Shown in pieces: positions 2,377 to 60,188 of a DNA stretch of 64,000 nucleotides. The stretch's first letter is position 1. The number at the start of each line of letters is the position of its first letter. The DNA comes from a virus: IMG/VR virus record IMGVR_UViG_3300036766_001014, positions 1-64,000 of that record, one strand, 5' to 3'. Position numbers and translations under genes: made by a program. The notes under the pieces were generated by a model. That model had not been told where the DNA came from. It did no database searches and worked only from the letters and a program-made list of their open reading frames with translations.

Positions 2377-2579
2377 GCGACGATAGATGCGTGGTGTGCG
2401 GGCGTACACGCAAGGAGCATCATGCGTTTGTGCCGACCAAAGTTCCAAGCGGTTGCAAGTGCGACCCTATGGACTGGCGCACGCCTGAAGATGTTCCCGC
2501 CATCTGCATGCTGTTCAACGGGGACGATTCATCCAGCGAATGCTTGTCGTGTGAGCACCTGGCGGAGTGCCACCAATGA
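2373..2579 (+). CDS. small Cys-rich hypothetical protein
   Basis: GTGA overlap; CxxC pairs. Confidence 0.65.
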   Translation: MSDDRCVVCGRTRKEHHAFVPTKVPSGCKCDPMDWRTPEDVPAICMLFNGDDSSSECLSCEHLAECHQ

Positions 2580-2944
2580 GTAAGCCGCCAGCGACACGTC
2601 CAGATCGAATCCCGCTTCCCGGTCTTCCAACGGACGAGGAACGCAAGGCGTCCGCACGACATTACTTCTGGTACCAGGCGATTGAGTTCGGTCCCAGTTT
2701 ACTCGCTCTTGTCCTTTTGAGCGTCGCTACGGTGTGGGCGGTACACCGGGCTTGGGCAGAGCTTCAGGAAAAACAGAAGGCTGAAGCACAGCCGATGGAG
2801 TTGCTGGCTTTGAGAGTTCAGATACTCGGGCTTGAAGTGAAAGCGCTCAAAGCTGAAACGAAGCTTCTTCTTCAAGACGCGGCGCGGCTTCAGCAGGCTG
2901 CTGCTGGAGTACCCGTAGAGGATCCAAATGAACCAAAGCGCTAA
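2576..2944 (+). CDS. membrane protein with coiled coil
   Basis: One hydrophobic helix then heptad-like region; ATGA overlap. Confidence 0.65.
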   Translation: MSKPPATRPDRIPLPGLPTDEERKASARHYFWYQAIEFGPSLLALVLLSVATVWAVHRAWAELQEKQKAEAQPMELLALRVQILGLEVKALKAETKLLLQDAARLQQAAAGVPVEDPNEPKR

Positions 2945-2957
2945 TACAGGCGACCAC

Positions 2958-3173
2958 ATGAAAGGGGCGCTTCTCGGAGGCGTCTCTTTCGTTTCGCATG
3001 CCACGTTCCAGCTGCTTCCGACTGTCTACGTTCCCGGCCAAGTCTGGATCGGAGGCGAGCCTGTTTCTGGAGTCTGTACGTGCGGCAAAACTCTGATGGT
3101 GATCATGGACCGGTACAACGGGCCGCGAAGGTTTCGCTGTCCAGATCCTGTGTCAACCGGCTGCGCTTTTTGA
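2958..3173 (+). CDS. hypothetical protein
   Basis: ORF in operon-like run. Confidence 0.45.
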   Translation: MKGALLGGVSFVSHATFQLLPTVYVPGQVWIGGEPVSGVCTCGKTLMVIMDRYNGPRRFRCPDPVSTGCAF

Positions 3174-3180
3174 GGTTCCT

Positions 3181-3423
3181 ATGAAAGCTCGTGATCACGG
3201 ATACGGGTTCTGCCCGGTCTGCGGGAAAGACAGCCCGCTGAAAACTGCGATGGAACGTCGGCCCAACGGAAACACCACGTGCGGAGGCTGCGGCCAGGCC
3301 ACGCCGTCCGCCAAATGGTTGCGGGTTGTGCTGCCTGCCGGTTTAGGAAGTCATGCCGACAAAGACATTGACCCGTCGAGGTCGAACCGATGCTTCGTTT
3401 CCTTGACGCTTTTTTCTGTCTGA
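3181..3423 (+). CDS. Zn-ribbon hypothetical protein
   Basis: CPVC...CGGC, GAGG RBS. Confidence 0.6.
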   Translation: MKARDHGYGFCPVCGKDSPLKTAMERRPNGNTTCGGCGQATPSAKWLRVVLPAGLGSHADKDIDPSRSNRCFVSLTLFSV

Positions 3424-3572
3424 TCGGCGCGCATGCTTGGATTTATAACCAGGCGGAGCTGGACAGCTTGCGCCGACCCCTGATCCGATCTTGCGCGTGC
3501 TGTTCGAGGCAGCAGATCCGCGAGTACAACGGGTACGACCGCGGTGGCTTCGGGCCGTGGGTCAACCTGTGA
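3390..3572 (+). CDS. small hypothetical protein (DUF1660-like C..GxHxW..CxxC)
   Basis: FFCLIGAHAW...CACC. Confidence 0.55.
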   Translation: MLRFLDAFFCLIGAHAWIYNQAELDSLRRPLIRSCACCSRQQIREYNGYDRGGFGPWVNL

Positions 3573-11058: not shown

Positions 11059-11142
11059 AATCTAATGATGCCGGAATCGTCTGTCAAGCGGCCTGGCTCC
11101 CCAGCGGCGACTCTTGACAAACCGACTACCTACCATTAGATT
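11059..11142. promoter_or_regulatory. divergent pair of sigma70-like promoters
   Basis: Minus TTGACA-N17-TAGATT (11087-11059) and plus TTGACA-N17-TAGATT (11114-11142). Confidence 0.85.
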
Positions 11143-40013: not shown

Positions 40014-40068
40014 CCTCTTGACTAACGCAAGTCTCCCGCTTAGATTGTGCTCGGAAGGACAAGGCATC

Positions 40069-47629: not shown

Positions 47630-47894
47630 CTCGTGGCCGCGCGTGCGCGTGGGCCAAAGGGTTCGGCTACTGAAGAATGGCGCTGATGGCGAGGTCGTTG
47701 GGGTTCGCCTAGCGCGAGACGTGCTGCGCACGATGACCGAGATGGACGCGATATTGCTTGGGCCCAAGTGCCAGGCGCTATACGGCGTAGGCTGGATCGA
47801 CATCTACTACGAGGCGGACGTGAGGCTTGGAGAGGGCGCGCTCGTGACCGTGGGGCCGAATGGTATCGAGCGAGTGCTTCCCGATCGGCGTTGA
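47607..47894 (+). CDS. hypothetical protein (SH3-like)
   Basis: VGQRVRL...GEVVGV. Confidence 0.55.
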   Translation: MTTSPLSSSWPRVRVGQRVRLLKNGADGEVVGVRLARDVLRTMTEMDAILLGPKCQALYGVGWIDIYYEADVRLGEGALVTVGPNGIERVLPDRR

Positions 47895-47924
47895 CAATCT
47901 AGGCTGATACGATAGGATGTTTTG

Positions 47925-49140: not shown

Positions 49141-51756
49141 GTGGACATTGATGCGGCAATCCTTTGGTGCGCGACGCGAGACGACAGCGCGTTGAAGATG
49201 GCCAAGTCGCTCGGCGTAACCGATCGGCTGCTGAACGGTAACGCCAAGGCGGCTTGGAAGTTCATCGGCGAGTACCAGGAAAAGTACGGCACGATCCCAA
49301 GCGTCGGACTCATCGTCGAGAACAGCGGCTGCGTCGTGAAGCCGCCGGACAGCGAGGAGGATCGCGTCGAGCTGCGATACGTTGTCGATCAGCTCTATGA
49401 TCGCTTTCAGTTCAAGTCGCTCAACTACGGCCTCGGCAAGTCGAGCGAGGCGCTTGAGAACGGTAACCAGCAAGAAGCTGTAGACGAGGTCCTCAAGCTA
49501 TCCGATCACCTACGCTCCGAGCGAAGGGATCAGCTTCAGATCCACTCGCTCGGCGACGTGGCGCCGGACGTGCTCGCGATGTACGAGCGCGTAAAGCGCG
49601 GCGAGACTGGCGTGCCGTTCCCGTGGCAGACCATGACCGACATGACTCTCGGCATGTGGCCAGGGACGCTGACGTTCTTCGTAGCTCGTCCTGGTGTCGG
49701 TAAATGCGTCCACGAAGACACCGAGATCATCGATCCGGTCACCGGCGTGCCGACCTCGATTCGGCAGGTATACGACAGTCGCGGCTTTGCTCGCGTGGCG
49801 AGCTGGTCGAAGGAGCGTGGCGTCCACGCCGTGCCGATCTCGGCCAAGGTGGACACCGGGAGAAAGGAATGCCTGCGGGTCACGTTTCGCACAGGGCGAA
49901 CGATCACGGTCACGCCAGAGCATCCATTCCTGTCGCCAGAAGGTTGGCTACGAGCCGACGCGATCAAAGTCGGAATGACCATGGCCTTGCCCGCCAGGAT
50001 GCCAACGCCGGAGCAGCCCGTGTCGCTGAGTCCGCTCGAAGTGGATCTGCTCGCCGTGCTTCTCTCGGAAGGCAGCTATACCGGACACCACACCGGGTTC
50101 ACCACGTCCGACGCGAGCATCCTTGAGATCGCGCGCGCGGCGGGCGAGTGGGCGGGTGCGCCGGTGAAGCATCGCAGTCGCTACGACTACGACTTTGTGC
50201 GTCCAGCTCAGTCTGCCGAACCGAACGCGGTCAGAGAGATTCTGCGCCGTCACGGGATCGCCGGAACGCTTGCCAAGCACAAGGTTTTGCCGGAGGCGAT
50301 CTGGCGATTGCCGCTTGAACAGCTGTCTCGTTTCTTGTCTGTGTTCTGGATGTGCGACGGGTACGTGGACGCGGCTCCAGGGGTCACGCTTGCATCTGAG
50401 AGGCTCGTTCGGCAGATCCAGTCGCTGCTGCTGCGTCTCGGTGTCCAGTCATCTGTCGGAGAAAGGACAGCAAAAATCGGAGAGGCTTCGTATCCGGCGT
50501 GGAGGCTGCGTGTTCACGCGGAGTGCTTCGAGGCGTTCGCGGCCGGGACGTCGCTCTGGGGAGACAAGAAGGACAGGCTCGACGCGCTTCTGACCATGGA
50601 GCGTAACCCAAACATCGGCTTTCCGAGGGTTAGCGACGAGACGATTGAGGCGTTGCGGCGAGTCTCCGACTCAGGGACTGGCCGATGGCAGGGCGGCAAG
50701 CATGAGATGGTGGCCGCGGCGCTTGACAGGGTTCAGTTTCAGTTCCGAGACATGTTCGGAGCCAGCAACAGCATCAAGAAGACGGCTTTCGTTGGCTTCG
50801 CAGAGGTGTACGGGATCGCCGATCAGTATGCATGGTGGTGGAACTCCGACATCTTCTGGGACGAAGTGGTGACGATCGACTCGGTGGGCGAGCAGAAGAT
50901 TTACGATCTCACGATCGCCGACACACACTGCTTCGTGGCCAACGATGTCATCGTTCACAACACTTGGACAGCGGTCATCATGGCCATGCACGTCTGGCAG
51001 GTGGCCAAGCTCAAGGTGCTAATCGTGTCGCCTGAGCTTGGCCGAGTTGAACTTGGCGAGCGGTGCGTGGCCAAGTACGGAGGGTTTTCGTACAAGGACA
51101 TGGTCAGCGCCGAGTTGGGCGTGTTCGCCGAGCCCAAGTTCTACCAAGTGATCGAGGAGTTGAAGACCAACGGCGATGGCCTCTACATCCTCGACGATGA
51201 GGATCGGTTGCAGCCCGACTACATCGAGCAAGCGGTGGAGGCGGTTCGGCCGGACCTCGTGATCATCGACAGCCTCTACATGCTGCGCGTCGAGCGCGGC
51301 AAGGTGAAGTCGGGCGCTGGCAGCAAAGGCGACCGCATGGAGCGCGTGGTCGAGACCATCAACTGGATGCGCGGATTGTCACGCAAGAAGCGCTCGTTCG
51401 CCCCGGAGGGATTGCCGGTGGTTGGCATCCACCAGCTCTCGCGAGACGGCAAGGTGCGCTCCGACGCCGCGAAGTCCATCAAGTCCGGGCGTGGCACCGG
51501 CGGCCTGGAGGACACCGTAGCCCTGTCGGACGCCCTGTTCTGGAACGCGCACAACCTGTTCGCGATGTACCAGGACCAGTACATGATGCAAGATCATCAG
51601 CTCATGTACGTTCCGCTCAAAGCGCGCCGTCAGACGAAGGTGTCGAGCCTCGTGATCAACTGGGACTTGGTCACAATGGACTTCAAGGAGTTGGGCACGA
51701 AGGTTGGCGATCAGACCGCGGCGTATCAGGATGAGGAGATGGAGGTTCCGTACTGA
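49141..51756 (+). CDS. dnaB: DnaB-like replicative helicase with intein
   Basis: ARPGVGK/T Walker A split by the intein; VIIDSLY; HQLSR. Confidence 0.9.
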   Translation: MDIDAAILWCATRDDSALKMAKSLGVTDRLLNGNAKAAWKFIGEYQEKYGTIPSVGLIVENSGCVVKPPDSEEDRVELRYVVDQLYDRFQFKSLNYGLGKSSEALENGNQQEAVDEVLKLSDHLRSERRDQLQIHSLGDVAPDVLAMYERVKRGETGVPFPWQTMTDMTLGMWPGTLTFFVARPGVGKCVHEDTEIIDPVTGVPTSIRQVYDSRGFARVASWSKERGVHAVPISAKVDTGRKECLRVTFRTGRTITVTPEHPFLSPEGWLRADAIKVGMTMALPARMPTPEQPVSLSPLEVDLLAVLLSEGSYTGHHTGFTTSDASILEIARAAGEWAGAPVKHRSRYDYDFVRPAQSAEPNAVREILRRHGIAGTLAKHKVLPEAIWRLPLEQLSRFLSVFWMCDGYVDAAPGVTLASERLVRQIQSLLLRLGVQSSVGERTAKIGEASYPAWRLRVHAECFEAFAAGTSLWGDKKDRLDALLTMERNPNIGFPRVSDETIEALRRVSDSGTGRWQGGKHEMVAAALDRVQFQFRDMFGASNSIKKTAFVGFAEVYGIADQYAWWWNSDIFWDEVVTIDSVGEQKIYDLTIADTHCFVANDVIVHNTWTAVIMAMHVWQVAKLKVLIVSPELGRVELGERCVAKYGGFSYKDMVSAELGVFAEPKFYQVIEELKTNGDGLYILDDEDRLQPDYIEQAVEAVRPDLVIIDSLYMLRVERGKVKSGAGSKGDRMERVVETINWMRGLSRKKRSFAPEGLPVVGIHQLSRDGKVRSDAAKSIKSGRGTGGLEDTVALSDALFWNAHNLFAMYQDQYMMQDHQLMYVPLKARRQTKVSSLVINWDLVTMDFKELGTKVGDQTAAYQDEEMEVPY
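49705..50961 (+). mobile_element. intein with in-frame LAGLIDADG endonuclease
   Basis: CVHEDT start, TPEHPF, LAVLLSEGS, FLSVFWMCDGYV, IYDLT...VHN/T. Confidence 0.95.
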
Positions 51757-55139: not shown

Positions 55140-57968
55140 ATGAGGGTTCGCGTGTCCGGACTGGTCTGGGTGCCGAAGGCAGAGCTGGGAAACAGCCTGG
55201 CCCAGCTCAAGAAGGCGCTGACCATCGTGCCGAGAAAGTCGGCGTACGCGGATAGCGAGCCGCCGACGCCGGTACCGTGCTGGGCGGAGACGCTCGATGA
55301 GTTCGGGTTGCCGAGGGACTACTTTTTTGGGAGCGCCAAACAGCAGCACGACATCGTTTGGGAGCTGTCCGAGGGCAGCCCAATATCGATCCAAAGCAAC
55401 CTGCGACAGACGGGCGACTACGCCGAGCAGGCGCTCGCGCTGGATACGCTGGAGGCATGGTTTCGCGGCTTCGATACCGCGGCCGATCCTATTTCCGCCG
55501 GTCTGCATCTTGGGGCCATCCTCCAGGCTGATCCTGGATTCGGAAAGACCGCGTCCGCCCTGGAGCTGGCGCGCAGGCTCGGGCGCACGACCCTGATCAT
55601 CGTCCACAAGGAGTTCTTGCTGACGCAGTGGCAGCGACGCATCGAAGCGTTCTTTCCGGACGCCAAGATCGGAATCGTGCGAGAGGACGTGTGCGACTTC
55701 GAGGGCAAGGACATCGTGCTGGCGATGGTGCAGTCGCTGGCGCTCGAAGGGGCAGATGGCAAGCAGCGGTATCCGCTGGCGTTATACAGGCACTTCGGGC
55801 TGATCGTGATCGATGAGTGCTTCGTTGCCGGAACCATGGTCGAGACGCCCGGTGGGCCACGGCCGATAGAGGGCATTCGGCCAGGAGACGCTGTCCTAAA
55901 CGCCGTGGGGCTAGGTAGCGTTGACCGGGTTACGACCAAGCGCGTCGCCGTGGACCGGCTTGTCGTGGTTCGCATTGACGACGGCAGCGAGTTCGTTTGC
56001 ACGGATGAGCATCCGTGGCTGACCCCGCACGGGTGGACGAAGGCCGCAGAGCTTACTCCTGGGGACGCGCTCGTTGCATTCTCCGAGAGCACTGATACCA
56101 TGTCAAGACATGGATATAGCATGCGAGGTGTGCGGGACCCCTTGCAAACCGAGGCTCGACCGGCGTCCAAGGTTCTGCTCGCAGCGATGCTGCGGGTTGG
56201 CCAAGGCGAAGCGGCAGAGGCCATGCGAGGCGTGCGGTCAAGAGGTTGCGAGGAAGGGGAATCGGTTCTGTTCCGTTGTCTGTCAGAGGAGCTGTCACCA
56301 GCGGTTCATGGGAACGCCGGAGATGCGAGCGCGGATGTCAGAGAACGCGAGGCGCCAGCACGCGAAAGACCCAGGTCTTGCAAGGAGATCGTCGGAGCGC
56401 ATGGTCACGCAGAACCCAATGGCAGATCAGGCGACCAGGAGGCTTGTGTCGAGCAAGCTCAAGGCAATGAAGTATCGCCCGGTGAGCCGAGGCGGGAACG
56501 GACGCGGTCTTACGGTTCCTCAGCAAGCTCTGTTGGAGGCGCTGGGCCACGGCTGGGCGCCGGAACTGGCGGTTCCAACCAAGATGTCGCGGGGGAGCGG
56601 CTATCCGACGTCCTACAAGCTGGATTTGGGGAACACGGCGCTGAAACTCGGGATCGAGGTGGACGGGCCCTCGCACGACAGCCCGAGAGCGAGAGCGAAG
56701 GATGGGAAAAAGAGCGCACTGCTGGCCACGCTCGGGTGGCGAGTGTTGCGCGTGCGGAACGAAGCGATCTTGAGCGACGCGGCATCCGCGTTGGCGACGA
56801 TTCGCGTGTGGATGTCTTCAACCTGAGCGTCTCTGGCCATCCGTCGTATGTGTTGGCGAATGGCTTGGTGGTGCACAACTGTCACCGCATCGGGGCTCTC
56901 ACGTGGAGCCAGGTGCCGAAGATGTTCTCGGCGAAGTGGTTGCTCGGACTGACCGCGACGCCGAGGCGCAGAGATGGAGCGGACAAGGTGTTCTGGTGGA
57001 ACATCGGCCAGATCCGGTACGCGGCCAAGACCAAGCGGCCGGTCCTCAGCGTGCGCATGGTGATGGCGAACGTATCGGGCCCGGACATCCTGCGCAGGGA
57101 CGTCTCGCCGAGCATCATCGTCAACGTCCTGGCCAAGCTGTCTGGGCGCAACCGGATCATTGTGCAGGAGATCATCGGAGCGCTGAAGTCGCCGTCCGGG
57201 CGCAAGATCATGGTGCTGAGCGAGCGGCTCGAACATCTCCGTGAGCTTGACTCATTGCTGCGACAGGAAGCGGACAGGGCTGGGATCGAGGTCTCAACCG
57301 GGTTCTACACGGGCGAGTGGTTCACCGGCGATCGCAGCGAGAAGCTCGCGCAAGGCCACTGGGACATGAACAACGGCGGTCGCAAGAAGGCGGAGGACGC
57401 AATCTACACGTCTCTCTCCAGGCGGAAGCTGGAGTCAGACGAGGCCAGGGCCGTGGACAAGGATCAGGACGGGACGAAAGTGATCGTCTTCAACGGCGGC
57501 GAACGGGTGCCGCTGAGCGACTTGCCCGAGCAGGCGCTGTATTCCCTCGCGCGCAGCTATGACATCAAGCAGAAGGTGACCGAGAAGAAGCGTCGCAGGA
57601 CCGAGGAGGAGCTGGCCGAGGCTGAGCGAGCCCGCGTGATCTGGGCTACGTATCAGATGACTTCTGAAGGTATCGACATCCCGGCGGTGGACACGATCGG
57701 ATTCGCGACGCCAATCAGCGACGTCGAGCAGTCATACGGCCGCGGTCGGCGCGTCTGCGTGCCCGTGGCGCACGGCGGCGACAAGACTCCGGAGGCATGT
57801 ACGCGACTGTGTTCTTGGCGGGCGGCGACCTGCACCGGTAAGCCGGTTGGAATGGCATTTGACGTGGTAGACGTACAAGTCCCGCTCGCGACCAGGCGCA
57901 GCAAGTACCGGCGGGAGTTTTACGAGAGCGTAGGGGCTCGCGTCGTAGATATTGACACTCGCAAATAA
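55140..57968 (+). CDS. SF2 helicase (UvsW/XPB-like) with intein
   Basis: PGFGKT, DE/CH split by the intein, GLTATPRRRDG, EGIDIP, QSYGRGRR. Confidence 0.9.
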   Translation: MRVRVSGLVWVPKAELGNSLAQLKKALTIVPRKSAYADSEPPTPVPCWAETLDEFGLPRDYFFGSAKQQHDIVWELSEGSPISIQSNLRQTGDYAEQALALDTLEAWFRGFDTAADPISAGLHLGAILQADPGFGKTASALELARRLGRTTLIIVHKEFLLTQWQRRIEAFFPDAKIGIVREDVCDFEGKDIVLAMVQSLALEGADGKQRYPLALYRHFGLIVIDECFVAGTMVETPGGPRPIEGIRPGDAVLNAVGLGSVDRVTTKRVAVDRLVVVRIDDGSEFVCTDEHPWLTPHGWTKAAELTPGDALVAFSESTDTMSRHGYSMRGVRDPLQTEARPASKVLLAAMLRVGQGEAAEAMRGVRSRGCEEGESVLFRCLSEELSPAVHGNAGDASADVREREAPARERPRSCKEIVGAHGHAEPNGRSGDQEACVEQAQGNEVSPGEPRRERTRSYGSSASSVGGAGPRLGAGTGGSNQDVAGERLSDVLQAGFGEHGAETRDRGGRALARQPESESEGWEKERTAGHARVASVARAERSDLERRGIRVGDDSRVDVFNLSVSGHPSYVLANGLVVHNCHRIGALTWSQVPKMFSAKWLLGLTATPRRRDGADKVFWWNIGQIRYAAKTKRPVLSVRMVMANVSGPDILRRDVSPSIIVNVLAKLSGRNRIIVQEIIGALKSPSGRKIMVLSERLEHLRELDSLLRQEADRAGIEVSTGFYTGEWFTGDRSEKLAQGHWDMNNGGRKKAEDAIYTSLSRRKLESDEARAVDKDQDGTKVIVFNGGERVPLSDLPEQALYSLARSYDIKQKVTEKKRRRTEEELAEAERARVIWATYQMTSEGIDIPAVDTIGFATPISDVEQSYGRGRRVCVPVAHGGDKTPEACTRLCSWRAATCTGKPVGMAFDVVDVQVPLATRRSKYRREFYESVGARVVDIDTRK
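56074..56101 (+). promoter_or_regulatory. internal promoter candidate within intein
   Basis: TTGCAT-N16-TACCAT, ATG 8 nt downstream. Confidence 0.55.
56110..56826 (+). CDS. Vsr/DUF559-like endonuclease with Zn-finger repeats, nested in the +1 frame of the intein
   Basis: CEVCG...FCSQRC, CEACG...FCSVVC, YKLDLG...IEVDGPSH...D..K...L...GWRVLRVRN. Confidence 0.85.
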   Translation: MDIACEVCGTPCKPRLDRRPRFCSQRCCGLAKAKRQRPCEACGQEVARKGNRFCSVVCQRSCHQRFMGTPEMRARMSENARRQHAKDPGLARRSSERMVTQNPMADQATRRLVSSKLKAMKYRPVSRGGNGRGLTVPQQALLEALGHGWAPELAVPTKMSRGSGYPTSYKLDLGNTALKLGIEVDGPSHDSPRARAKDGKKSALLATLGWRVLRVRNEAILSDAASALATIRVWMSST

Positions 57969-58011
57969 TGATGTAAGTTGGTGGGTAACAGCCAGATTCG
58001 GAGGTCGAGCG

Positions 58012-58916: not shown

Positions 58917-60188
58917 ATGACGGCAACAAAGCTCACGCAGGTAGCCAAGACGCTACAGGCCAAGTATGGCAGCGGCGCCATTGGCCGTGGCGACACGACT
59001 CCATCCGAGGATCGCAGAATGACCACCGGGTCATTGCGGCTTGACGCAGTGCTGGGCGGAGGCATCCGGGTCGGATGGGTGACGTCGTTCTATGGGGAGA
59101 AGTCCGGCGGCAAGAGCACGACCGCCATCCGCTGCATGGGGATCGCGCAGAACCATTGCCGCAACTGTCTGCGGCCGGTCAAGGACGTGCAGGCGGCTCC
59201 GCCAGAAGGGGTCGCGTCGGAGGACGTCAAGACATCTCGGTGGGGCGCAACCGGAACGTGTACCTGCTATGCCGAGGGGCTCTATCAGCCAGATCCTCCG
59301 CCAAAGGAAACCGGCGAGTCGCCCAAGGTCTACCGCGAGCGGGTCGAAGCCTGGATAGAGAAGCTCAAGGACAACTCCTACGAGGAGATGGTCTGTGCCT
59401 GGATCGACATGGAGCACTCGTTCGACAAGGGTTGGGCGGTCAGGCTCGGCCTCGACACGCGCCGCTTGCTCTACGTGAGGCCGGAGTCGGCCGAGGAGTC
59501 GCTCGACATCATTGCTGCCCTGATTGGCACGATCGAAGTGGACATGCTGTGCATCGACTCGATCGCGAACCTCACTCCGACCAAGGAGCTGACGGACTCG
59601 ATGGAGCAATGGCAGCAAGGTCTCCAGGCGAGGCTGGTCAACAAGGGCATTCGCAAGCTCATCACCGGATCGTCATCGGTAGCCAACGCGCATCGGACAA
59701 TCACGCAAATCTGGATCAACCAGGTGCGTGACAAGATCACGATGTTCGGCGATCCGACCGTGAAGCCGGGCGGCAAGGGCCAGGAGTTTGCGGTTCATGC
59801 AGAGGTGAAGTTCAGCAAGTCCAAGATCGAAATGGACACCGAGCAGTACGGCGCGAAGGACGAGGTTATCAAGATCCCGCGCATGGAGACGTTTTCGTTC
59901 AAGTGCACCAAGAACAGGACGGCCGGTACGAAGGACTCGGAGGGATTCTACATACAGCGCGTGCGAGACACCGAGGCCGGGAAAGCTGGCGAGATCGTAG
60001 ATGGCGAGGAGGTCTACGCGCTTGCGATGCACTACCTCGTTGATTCGAGCAAGAAGGGCGCCTATCGGCTCGCCGATCGTGAGTACACGAGTCAGAAGGC
60101 CATTGCCGTCGATCTTCGAGATGACGCCGGTCTCTATTCGGCCGTACGCGCCGCACTGCTAGCCAAGCTGATCAAGGGCGCGCGGTGA
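58917..60188 (+). CDS. recA: RecA/UvsX-like recombinase with Cys-containing insertion
   Basis: TGSLRLD..LGGG, GEKSGGKST, WIDMEHSFD, IDSIANL, INQVRDKI, PGGKG. Confidence 0.9.
   Translation: MTATKLTQVAKTLQAKYGSGAIGRGDTTPSEDRRMTTGSLRLDAVLGGGIRVGWVTSFYGEKSGGKSTTAIRCMGIAQNHCRNCLRPVKDVQAAPPEGVASEDVKTSRWGATGTCTCYAEGLYQPDPPPKETGESPKVYRERVEAWIEKLKDNSYEEMVCAWIDMEHSFDKGWAVRLGLDTRRLLYVRPESAEESLDIIAALIGTIEVDMLCIDSIANLTPTKELTDSMEQWQQGLQARLVNKGIRKLITGSSSVANAHRTITQIWINQVRDKITMFGDPTVKPGGKGQEFAVHAEVKFSKSKIEMDTEQYGAKDEVIKIPRMETFSFKCTKNRTAGTKDSEGFYIQRVRDTEAGKAGEIVDGEEVYALAMHYLVDSSKKGAYRLADREYTSQKAIAVDLRDDAGLYSAVRAALLAKLIKGAR

Follow-up and report, generated by a model that had tools for sequence, protein, structure and literature searches.

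Inteins that carry their endonuclease in a reading frame other than their own are the closest described relatives of the element reported here, an intein in a superfamily 2 (SF2) helicase gene of a virus, within which a predicted nuclease gene is encoded in frame +1. Gosselin, Arsenault and Gogarten (bioRxiv 10.1101/2025.01.02.630785) described actinobacteriophage inteins with the endonuclease in another frame or on the other strand, which they call rare (63 of 784 inteins). The cases set out there are antisense LAGLIDADG, antisense VSR-like and 'frame 3' endonuclease-VII-like enzymes, hosted by genes for DNA polymerase, minor capsid protein, terminase and thymidylate synthase, and they are proposed to have arisen when a free-standing endonuclease gene invaded an intein; the evidence presented indicates continued transfer. 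Phillips, DeSimone and Gogarten (bioRxiv 10.64898/2026.09.14.751524) described a cyanobacterial dnaX intein with a sense-strand overlapping LAGLIDADG open reading frame (ORF), the '+2ORF', together with a disordered in-frame segment, frame-dependent selection, Shine-Dalgarno (SD) motifs before the ORF, and full, mini and empty alleles; they cite Gorbalenya 1998 ('Non-canonical inteins') for the first proposal. The DNA analysed here, called the window below, is a stretch of 64,000 nucleotides (nt) forming part of an 80.8-kb, metagenome-derived IMG/VR virus record (IMGVR_UViG_3300036766_001014), and it contains one copy of the nuclease gene.

Like the inteins of Gosselin et al., the intein of the window is contiguous and has an out-of-frame endonuclease between its splicing blocks. 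It differs from the cases set out by these authors in that its VSR-like gene lies on the sense strand in frame +1, encodes zinc fingers, is hosted by an SF2 helicase and represents the dominant state of its family. With the dnaX intein its family shares a sense-strand endonuclease ORF that overlaps a probably disordered in-frame segment, frame-dependent selection, SD motifs and the coexistence of full, mini and empty alleles, whereas the system described by Phillips et al. is a LAGLIDADG enzyme encoded as '+2ORF' in a cellular dnaX gene and ours is a Vsr-like enzyme in a phage helicase.

Three further systems are related in part. Dassa et al. 2009 (PMC2677866) described free-standing Vsr-like genes between split-intein halves, mainly in phage DNA-metabolism genes, where stops divide the host gene in two and the products are joined by trans splicing; by that account Vsr-like enzymes were then unknown inside inteins. 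Our locus resembles these fractured genes in the nuclease superfamily (Vsr-like, later EDxHD), in the position between intein halves and in the overlap of the nuclease 3' end with the downstream part. It differs in that the helicase frame is continuous, the fractured counterpart within the same family being found at two other loci (L051 and L053). The EDxHD prototype I-Bth0305I (Taylor et al. 2011, PMC3239194; PDB 3R3P) resides in a recA group I intron, and according to the same paper the EDxHD family is Vsr-like and associated with introns and inteins, and the enzyme cuts the uninterrupted host allele. Searched against the PDB, a profile of 53 sequences of our nuclease matched the catalytic domain of I-Bth0305I (E=4.5e-4), and both proteins consist of an N-terminal DNA-binding region and a C-terminal catalytic domain, which in our case are predicted from sequence. 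I-Bth0305I is encoded in an intron and not in an intein, and the DUF559 protein 3HRL is closer to our nuclease by sequence (8.8e-13). Finally, the ShiLan-type insertions of phage methylases (PMC11855218) contain a hidden out-of-frame HNH ORF in a stop-free host frame. An endonuclease ORF in the other frame of a stop-free insertion is common to both systems; the ShiLan-type insertions differ in having no Hint or splicing domain, and their nuclease is of the HNH type.

The full texts of open-access papers and bioRxiv preprints were searched for an SF2-helicase intein with a zinc-finger Vsr-like gene in frame +1 on the sense strand, and none was found. Out-of-frame intein endonucleases as such are already published, and what appears to be new here is the family that combines the helicase host, the +1 frame and the Vsr-like nuclease. 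The first-pass annotation of the window, made from the letters and their ORFs, had implied that an out-of-frame intein endonuclease was itself a novelty; in this respect it was preceded by the reports of Gosselin et al. and Phillips et al.

We consider it very probable, from the sequence comparisons given below, that the element is a mobile intein, predicted to be splicing-competent, which is inserted at the DE/CH site of the helicase and has its homing endonuclease as a separate +1 gene nested between the two splicing parts (a slash within a protein motif denotes the insertion point or an intein border). Ribosomes reading the helicase frame would traverse about 240 codons of a structureless linker that selection would keep stop-free, and the two Hint halves would then dock, excise the whole insert and restore the DECH motif. 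The nuclease would be made separately from an internal ATG and would most likely cut intein-less helicase alleles, after which repair would copy the intein in.

The helicase precursor, an SF2 (DExH, ResIII/Helicase_C) phage helicase, is encoded by a single ORF of 942 amino acids (aa) without internal stop at 55140-57968 on the plus strand, where all parts of the element lie; Pfam finds ResIII (E=5.3e-18) and Helicase_C (E=0.0015) in it. The N-extein (55140-55817) terminates in motif II (...LIVIDE) and the C-extein (56880-57968) begins with CHRIGALTW..., so that motif II is split as DE/CH by a contiguous intein of 354 codons (55818-56879), which reads CFVAGT...VVHN and is followed by Cys as the +1 residue. 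The N-terminal splicing part, with Cys1 and a block-B-like CTDEH, occupies 55818-56108, 5' of the overlap with the nuclease gene, and was matched at 55818-56129 by a Hint-N hidden Markov model (HMM; E=4e-36). The C-terminal splicing part (56763-56879; ...VDVFNLSVSGHPSYVLANGLVVHN), whose initial portion overlaps the nuclease tail, was matched by a Hint-C HMM at 56763-56891 (E=3e-20); both matches are in the helicase frame, and both HMMs were made in this analysis from just five sequences. Pfam searches of the intein frame gave Hint-type families only, restricted to both ends, with Hint_2 at 29.4-31.9 bits (cut-off 28.4) and Intein_splicing at 25.2-28.6 bits, under its cut-off of 35.8. The residues expected for splicing are present in the window intein as C1 (CFVAGT), CTDEH and VVHN followed by C. 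Fractured genes are recognised by a host frame broken by a stop and a new start for the C-terminal half; the helicase frame of the window is open throughout.

The intein-frame reading of the overlap (56109-56825) is a stop-free linker that is rich in Gly, Arg, Ala and Glu and poor in hydrophobic residues, and the Pfam profile search gave no match in this central part. Its 239 residues comprise 13.8% G, 13.4% R, 12.6% A and 11.7% E, and hydrophobic residues make up 17.6% of it versus 31.6% of the exteins. The idea that the linker is selected for its composition was dropped, as its residues are nearly fixed by positions 1 and 2 of the nuclease codons. The insertion is exact and in frame at the conserved motif II, and intein-less homologues exist: one is the syntenic 616-aa helicase L073, which is 43% identical and reads DEVH at the site, and another is found in Vibrio phage 234P10.

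The nuclease gene (56110-56826, frame +1) encodes 238 aa plus the stop when it is read from the ATG at 56110; a TTG at 56074 is the other possible start. N-terminal CxxC zinc-finger modules are followed by a C-terminal DUF559/Vsr-like core of EDxHD type. The Pfam DUF559 match (E=2.4e-9; 37.5 bits, cut-off 20.6) covers residues 180-244 of the TTG-started ORF, which places the catalytic core at approximately residues 168-232 from the ATG (56611-56805). The family profile that matched 3HRL and 3R3P also gave weak zinc-finger matches at the N-terminus. All 16 residues that are invariant among the 53 sequences of the family are intact in the window nuclease, including D172, E183, G186, H189, D198, K201, R214 and N217, and the nearly invariant D185 is present as well. 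We concluded that the +1 ORF encodes a member of the DUF559/EDxHD (Vsr-like) family and a predicted nuclease. The first-pass annotation had listed the helicase ORF, the 354-codon intein at DE/CH, central intein codons without recognisable motif, and a zinc-finger plus Vsr/DUF559-like nuclease in the +1 frame, and it had called for an HMM search of both frames; every one of these features was found again at the same positions, with Hint-type ends in the intein frame, an empty centre, and DUF559 in the +1 frame.

The nuclease family is large. In an exhaustive profile search, 42,613 proteins passed a threshold of E<=1e-3, and with E<=1e-30 there were 1049 cluster representatives; the best 150 of the proteins found were 158-496 aa in length. 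A word-index search of a 5.8-billion-protein database returned 6 homologues of near equal length and 1 longer one, and by comparison with the exhaustive search it understates the size of the family. One protein from the exhaustive search, P0028 (496 aa), is a helicase N-extein with Hint-N that continues directly in the nuclease frame as far as the nuclease stop; either a frameshift that occurs in nature or a fault of assembly could account for it.

The same layout was found in other genomes. The helicase gene of the window gave no match to GenBank phages by blastn, and searches at the protein level were required. By tblastn the +1 protein matched 40 GenBank phage records, and all 30 of the matches listed lie under a coding sequence (CDS) of helicase type. 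The four GenBank phages that were examined, Pseudomonas MR14, Vibrio CP-T1, Corynebacterium phi673 and Vibrio K391 (gene GC content 46-60%), all have the +1 match within an annotated helicase CDS that has no internal stop, and in all four the nested CDS is unannotated. In IMG/VR, 65 loci were found by a pattern scan and classed with the small Hint-N and Hint-C HMMs. Contigs of metagenome-assembled genomes (MAGs) from GTDB gave 78 loci, 31 of which have a long match and were analysed (L074-L102, L104 and L129); the other 47 (L103, L105-L128 and L130-L151), which match only in the generic DUF559 core, at about residues 142-236, were left out.

An intact nuclease ORF nested in frame +1 of an open helicase-type ORF was seen at 59 of the 65 IMG/VR loci and at 27 of the 31 MAG loci. 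Hint-N was found in all 59 of the nested IMG/VR loci and Hint-C in 56, and the other 3 show LVHN/S by eye. The splicing motifs, as judged by a crude regular expression in the 55 unique nested loci, were present as DEC in 51, as TxxH in 41 and as xN[C/S] in all 55. The remaining loci comprise two IMG/VR loci (L007, L045) and two MAG loci (L078, L079) with an early stop in the nuclease frame and an open host frame; two fractured IMG/VR loci (L051, L053) with a broken host frame, and none among the MAG loci; one free-standing nuclease in each set (L047, adjoining a helicase gene, and L095); and one nuclease in frame with the intein in each set (L030 and the distant L129). The opposite out-of-frame phase was found at none of the 65 IMG/VR and 31 MAG loci. 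In-frame versions are very rare, amounting to 2 of 96 loci plus the single longer protein of the word-index search. The in-frame case L030 (2080-5190) is an intein of a UvrD-type (superfamily 1) helicase with the same nuclease core and without the zinc-finger region, and L129 (2371-4506) lies on a Nitrosotalea contig.

The recurrence of the layout bears on the possibility of an artefact, that is, that the endonuclease was an ordinary in-frame domain of the intein and has been displaced from that frame by two compensating sequencing or assembly indels. The window does come from a metagenome-derived record, and P0028 indicates that frame errors or variants occur somewhere in the family. Nevertheless, the same +1 offset is present in all four cultured and separately sequenced phages and at 86 of the 96 metagenomic and MAG loci. 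The contig X2 (17.5 kb), which comes from another sample in another study, covers 55700-57000 and differs there by 12 substitutions and no gaps; two further runs (X3 and X4) cover parts of the stretch and are likewise gap-free, and the 2828 nt over which two related IMG/VR contigs (L005 and L006) align with the window contain no gap either. For this check, Logan contigs were used rather than raw reads. The absence of indels at the two borders between intein and nuclease, on which the initial proposal depended, is thereby borne out by an independent contig. An error model also does not predict the complete avoidance of stops described next, and we regard an artefact as extremely improbable.

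In the nested arrangement a helicase-frame stop arises only where a T-ending nuclease codon precedes a codon beginning with AA, AG or GA. Across the 55 unique nested loci (the window and L001-L004 included), none of the 3406 at-risk codons ends in T, versus 22.7% of the codons elsewhere in the same ORFs, a rate that predicts about 772. Over the same DNA, the remaining frame of that strand has 856 stops. The fractured loci L051 and L053 serve as an internal control without stop avoidance, T being the last base of 35 of their 101 at-risk codons. The chance of an open helicase frame, computed for each locus, ranged from 10^-1.3 to 10^-29, with 10^-10 to 10^-29 in AT-rich phages; L007, L045, L030 and L047 were excluded from all stop-avoidance analyses, and the per-locus probabilities also omit L015, L020 and L038, which have no Hint-C HMM match, and count duplicates. 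Family-wide amino-acid identity was 36-45% in the nuclease frame versus 18-23% in the intein frame, and nucleotide identity at nuclease codon positions 1, 2 and 3 was 0.48, 0.53 and 0.34, the third position being the least conserved. From the stop avoidance, the fractured control and the frame-specific identities, we concluded that across the family selection acts on the amino-acid sequence encoded in the nuclease frame and only on openness in the intein frame. As judged by these alignments, the dual coding is neither chance nor sequencing error, and the early proposal of a stretch of about 0.7 kb that is dual-coding, with the intein frame kept stop-free, was upheld.

The nuclease ORFs of the family start with a Met a few residues ahead of the first CxxC. 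In 24 of the 55 loci a stop in the same frame lies at most 5 codons upstream of this ATG, sometimes directly before it, and we therefore concluded that the predicted nuclease is encoded by a gene of its own rather than as part of a fusion. An SD core (AGGA, GGAG or GAGG, 4-17 nt upstream) was also found in 24 of the 55 loci, versus 9.6% of 2613 control ATGs (p=5e-11), often within the Hint residues D-E-V. That the nuclease has an expression unit distinct from the intein, as had been suggested, accordingly agrees with its own ATG and with the upstream in-frame stops. The same observations bear on programmed frameshifting, in which a +1 shift after Hint-N and a shift back before Hint-C would make the nuclease an in-frame domain of the intein. 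Such shifting is conceivable in that both frames are open on one strand, the nuclease frame of the window being open from 56023, 29 codons 5' of the ATG. It is opposed by the upstream stops and by the enrichment of SD cores at the ATG; moreover, the nuclease frame always stops before the intein end, and frameshifting gives no reason for 240 stop-free codons in the helicase frame. Judged by these stops, SD cores and open codons, it is in our view very unlikely.

Alleles with and without the intein are found in close relatives among cultured phages. A blastn search with the K391 helicase revealed Vibrio phages whose flanks are about 92-94% identical. The site is empty in 234P10, where the motif reads QDE/CHH without interruption and the gene lacks exactly 1068 nt relative to that of K391; K389 and K459 have a 150-aa mini-intein without the nuclease at DE/CH; and K391 has the nuclease-bearing intein at the same DE/CH site. 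Empty, mini and full alleles at one site point to homing. Two inteins occur in the helicase of a further Vibrio phage, PS65A.1 (L154, 301-3432), namely a LAGLIDADG intein at Walker A (GGGK/C...HN/T) and a mini-intein at DE/CH.

Divergence around the intein of the window was compared with that of its closest relatives. Versus L005, divergence amounts to 3.9% in the intein and 12.7% in the exteins (Fisher p=1e-15). The difference holds for the part that is not dual-coding, with 12 of 292 positions (4.1%) changed in Hint-N versus 79 of 678 (11.7%) in the N-extein (p=1e-4), and synonymous divergence was 0.07-0.09 in the intein versus 0.34-0.36 in the exteins. Versus L006, divergence rises from 0.4% (7/1687 nt) to 4.6% (50/1089 nt) at the C-terminal end of the intein (56827-57968 in the window), which looks like a recombination or co-conversion boundary. 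These patterns agree with the intein having been transferred recently, by homing or recombination.

Several points weigh against a functional nested gene in the window or limit the census. The loci are related by descent, and their counts are not counts of independent events; the family start codon was chosen heuristically, as the nearest ATG upstream of the first CxxC. In the window, the ATG at 56110 has no SD core. The first-pass annotation had proposed a promoter of the nuclease's own, and an element TTGCAT (56074-56079)-N16-TACCAT (56096-56101) is indeed present, at 56074-56101, 8 nt before the ATG. This element is weak, with 7 of 12 matches to the sigma-70 consensus, and was not called by the promoter scan. 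It also fits poorly to the type that recurs in this phage, TTGACA-N16/17-TAGATT, which in several cases lies 6-9 nt before a start codon. L005 and L006, overall 96-99% identical to the window, have the same two hexamers, and the loose pattern TTGNNN-N16-18-TANNNT ending 5-10 nt upstream occurs before only 8 of the 1753 ATGs of the window. We retain it as a candidate promoter of the nuclease with a likelihood of roughly one in three. The window nuclease might be expressed from a leaderless transcript starting at this weak internal element, or by internal initiation on the helicase mRNA. The sole site that the standard scan called in 52-60 kb lies opposite the nuclease start region (56106-56078, minus strand; TTGACA-N17-GAGAAT, 10/12) and is a possible antisense promoter.

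Recent substitutions in the overlap also weigh on that side. Versus L005 there are 27, of which 12 affect second positions of nuclease codons, and the ratio of nonsynonymous to synonymous change (pN/pS) is 0.54 for the nuclease frame compared with 0.39 for the intein frame; versus L006 there are only 5, of which 4 are nonsynonymous in the nuclease frame. Selection on the window's own nuclease copy may be relaxed. Frame-specific selection, which the first-pass annotation had proposed to check, is therefore seen across the family and not as a clear asymmetry within the clade of the window. Together with the missing SD core, these substitutions would suit the explanation that the frame is open by luck in DNA of 63% GC, or that the nuclease is an unexpressed, decaying relic with only the helicase-frame constraint left. 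The window taken alone also gives room for chance: given the protein sequence of the nuclease and the codon usage of its gene, about 5.9 helicase-frame stops are expected and 0 were seen (P ~10^-2.8). Against this, the substitutions are few, the ORF is of full length and stop-free, and none of the invariant residues has been lost. Across the overlap, third codon positions have a GC content of 0.761 when read in the nuclease frame and 0.561 when read in the intein frame, the former being like that of the other genes of the phage (0.78-0.82). The roughly threefold lower divergence of the intein relative to the exteins, suggesting recent transfer, would imply an active endonuclease. Chance or a relic is in our judgement improbable, though less so than frameshifting or an artefact.

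The relation of the nested form to fractured genes can be examined in L051 and L053 (~2517-3494). In both of these loci three stops end Hint-N, the +1 nuclease gene comes next, and a new Met starts a gene for Hint-C and the C-extein which overlaps the nuclease 3' end; 35 further stops lie in the intein frame beyond the three after Hint-N. The nested locus had been put forward as an intermediate related to fractured split-intein loci. What supports the relation is that the same nuclease family lies between the split halves of L051 and L053. The status of an intermediate is doubtful, because the nested form is dominant over very deep divergence, as expected of a stable arrangement and not of a transition.

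The genetic code offers a possible explanation for this stability. A change from NNT to NNC is always synonymous, so any nuclease sequence can be written in the +1 phase without a helicase-frame stop. In the other phase, a TGA is unavoidable wherever Met precedes Ile, Met, Thr, Asn or Lys, and such dipeptides occur in 50 of the 55 nucleases (median 2). By inference from the code, +1 is the sole cost-free phase. A single origin of the +1 phase is also possible, since the loci share ancestry. We tentatively suggest, as a possibility that falls somewhat short of an even case, that nesting in +1 is an end state, stable and favoured by the genetic code, rather than a passing stage between fractured and in-frame inteins, and that it may also gate the endonuclease. 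If this is true, a code-favoured phase would explain why +1 is kept in a very large and mostly unannotated phage family, over deep divergence and at several insertion sites, and ribosomes translating the helicase would cross the nuclease start and keep a potentially toxic enzyme low.

For annotation, the consequence is that the endonuclease gene is invisible in all four GenBank records, which carry the helicase CDS only, and surveys of inteins restricted to in-frame domains would class such inteins as having an unknown or degenerate middle. Contrary to the 'rare' in print, out-of-frame intein endonucleases may be common in phages, given the 1049 representatives and the dominance of the nested form in our census. 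The family is also a clean natural case of overprinting, one frame being selected for sequence and the other for openness, with the fractured relatives as a built-in control. The cultured Vibrio phages, with empty, mini and full alleles in near-identical helicases, offer a tractable system for homing and nested expression.

Other features of the window include a second intein in the same replication module. A DnaB-type helicase at 49141-51756 (+) contains an in-frame intein with a LAGLIDADG endonuclease (Intein_splicing 1.8e-19, LAGLIDADG_3 6.5e-9, DnaB_C 3.5e-8), so that a canonical intein and the non-canonical one of the SF2 helicase lie about 4 kb apart; the contrast drawn earlier with an in-frame DnaB intein endonuclease is correct.

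Promoter-like sites of the form TTGAC(A/T)-N16/17-TAG(A/G/T)(A/T/G)T were found at 11059-11142, 29636-29664, 31176-31203, 40018-40046, 47891-47918 and 57952-57979. The first of these is a divergent back-to-back pair (11114-11142 on the plus strand and 11087-11059 on the minus strand), and the last is a TAAGTT variant that sits right where the helicase gene ends. The location of several sites just before start codons, at the distance given above, suggests leaderless genes. The sites are given as a list, since longest-ORF gene calls were too unreliable for counts of leaderless versus SD-led genes.

Downstream of the helicase, a RecA-like protein is encoded at 58917-60188 (+), with a Rad51 Walker-A piece at residues 34-69 and a Pfam RecA match from residue 156. 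A stretch of about 85 aa with several Cys and without a Hint match separates the two, and it is possibly an inserted zinc-binding module.

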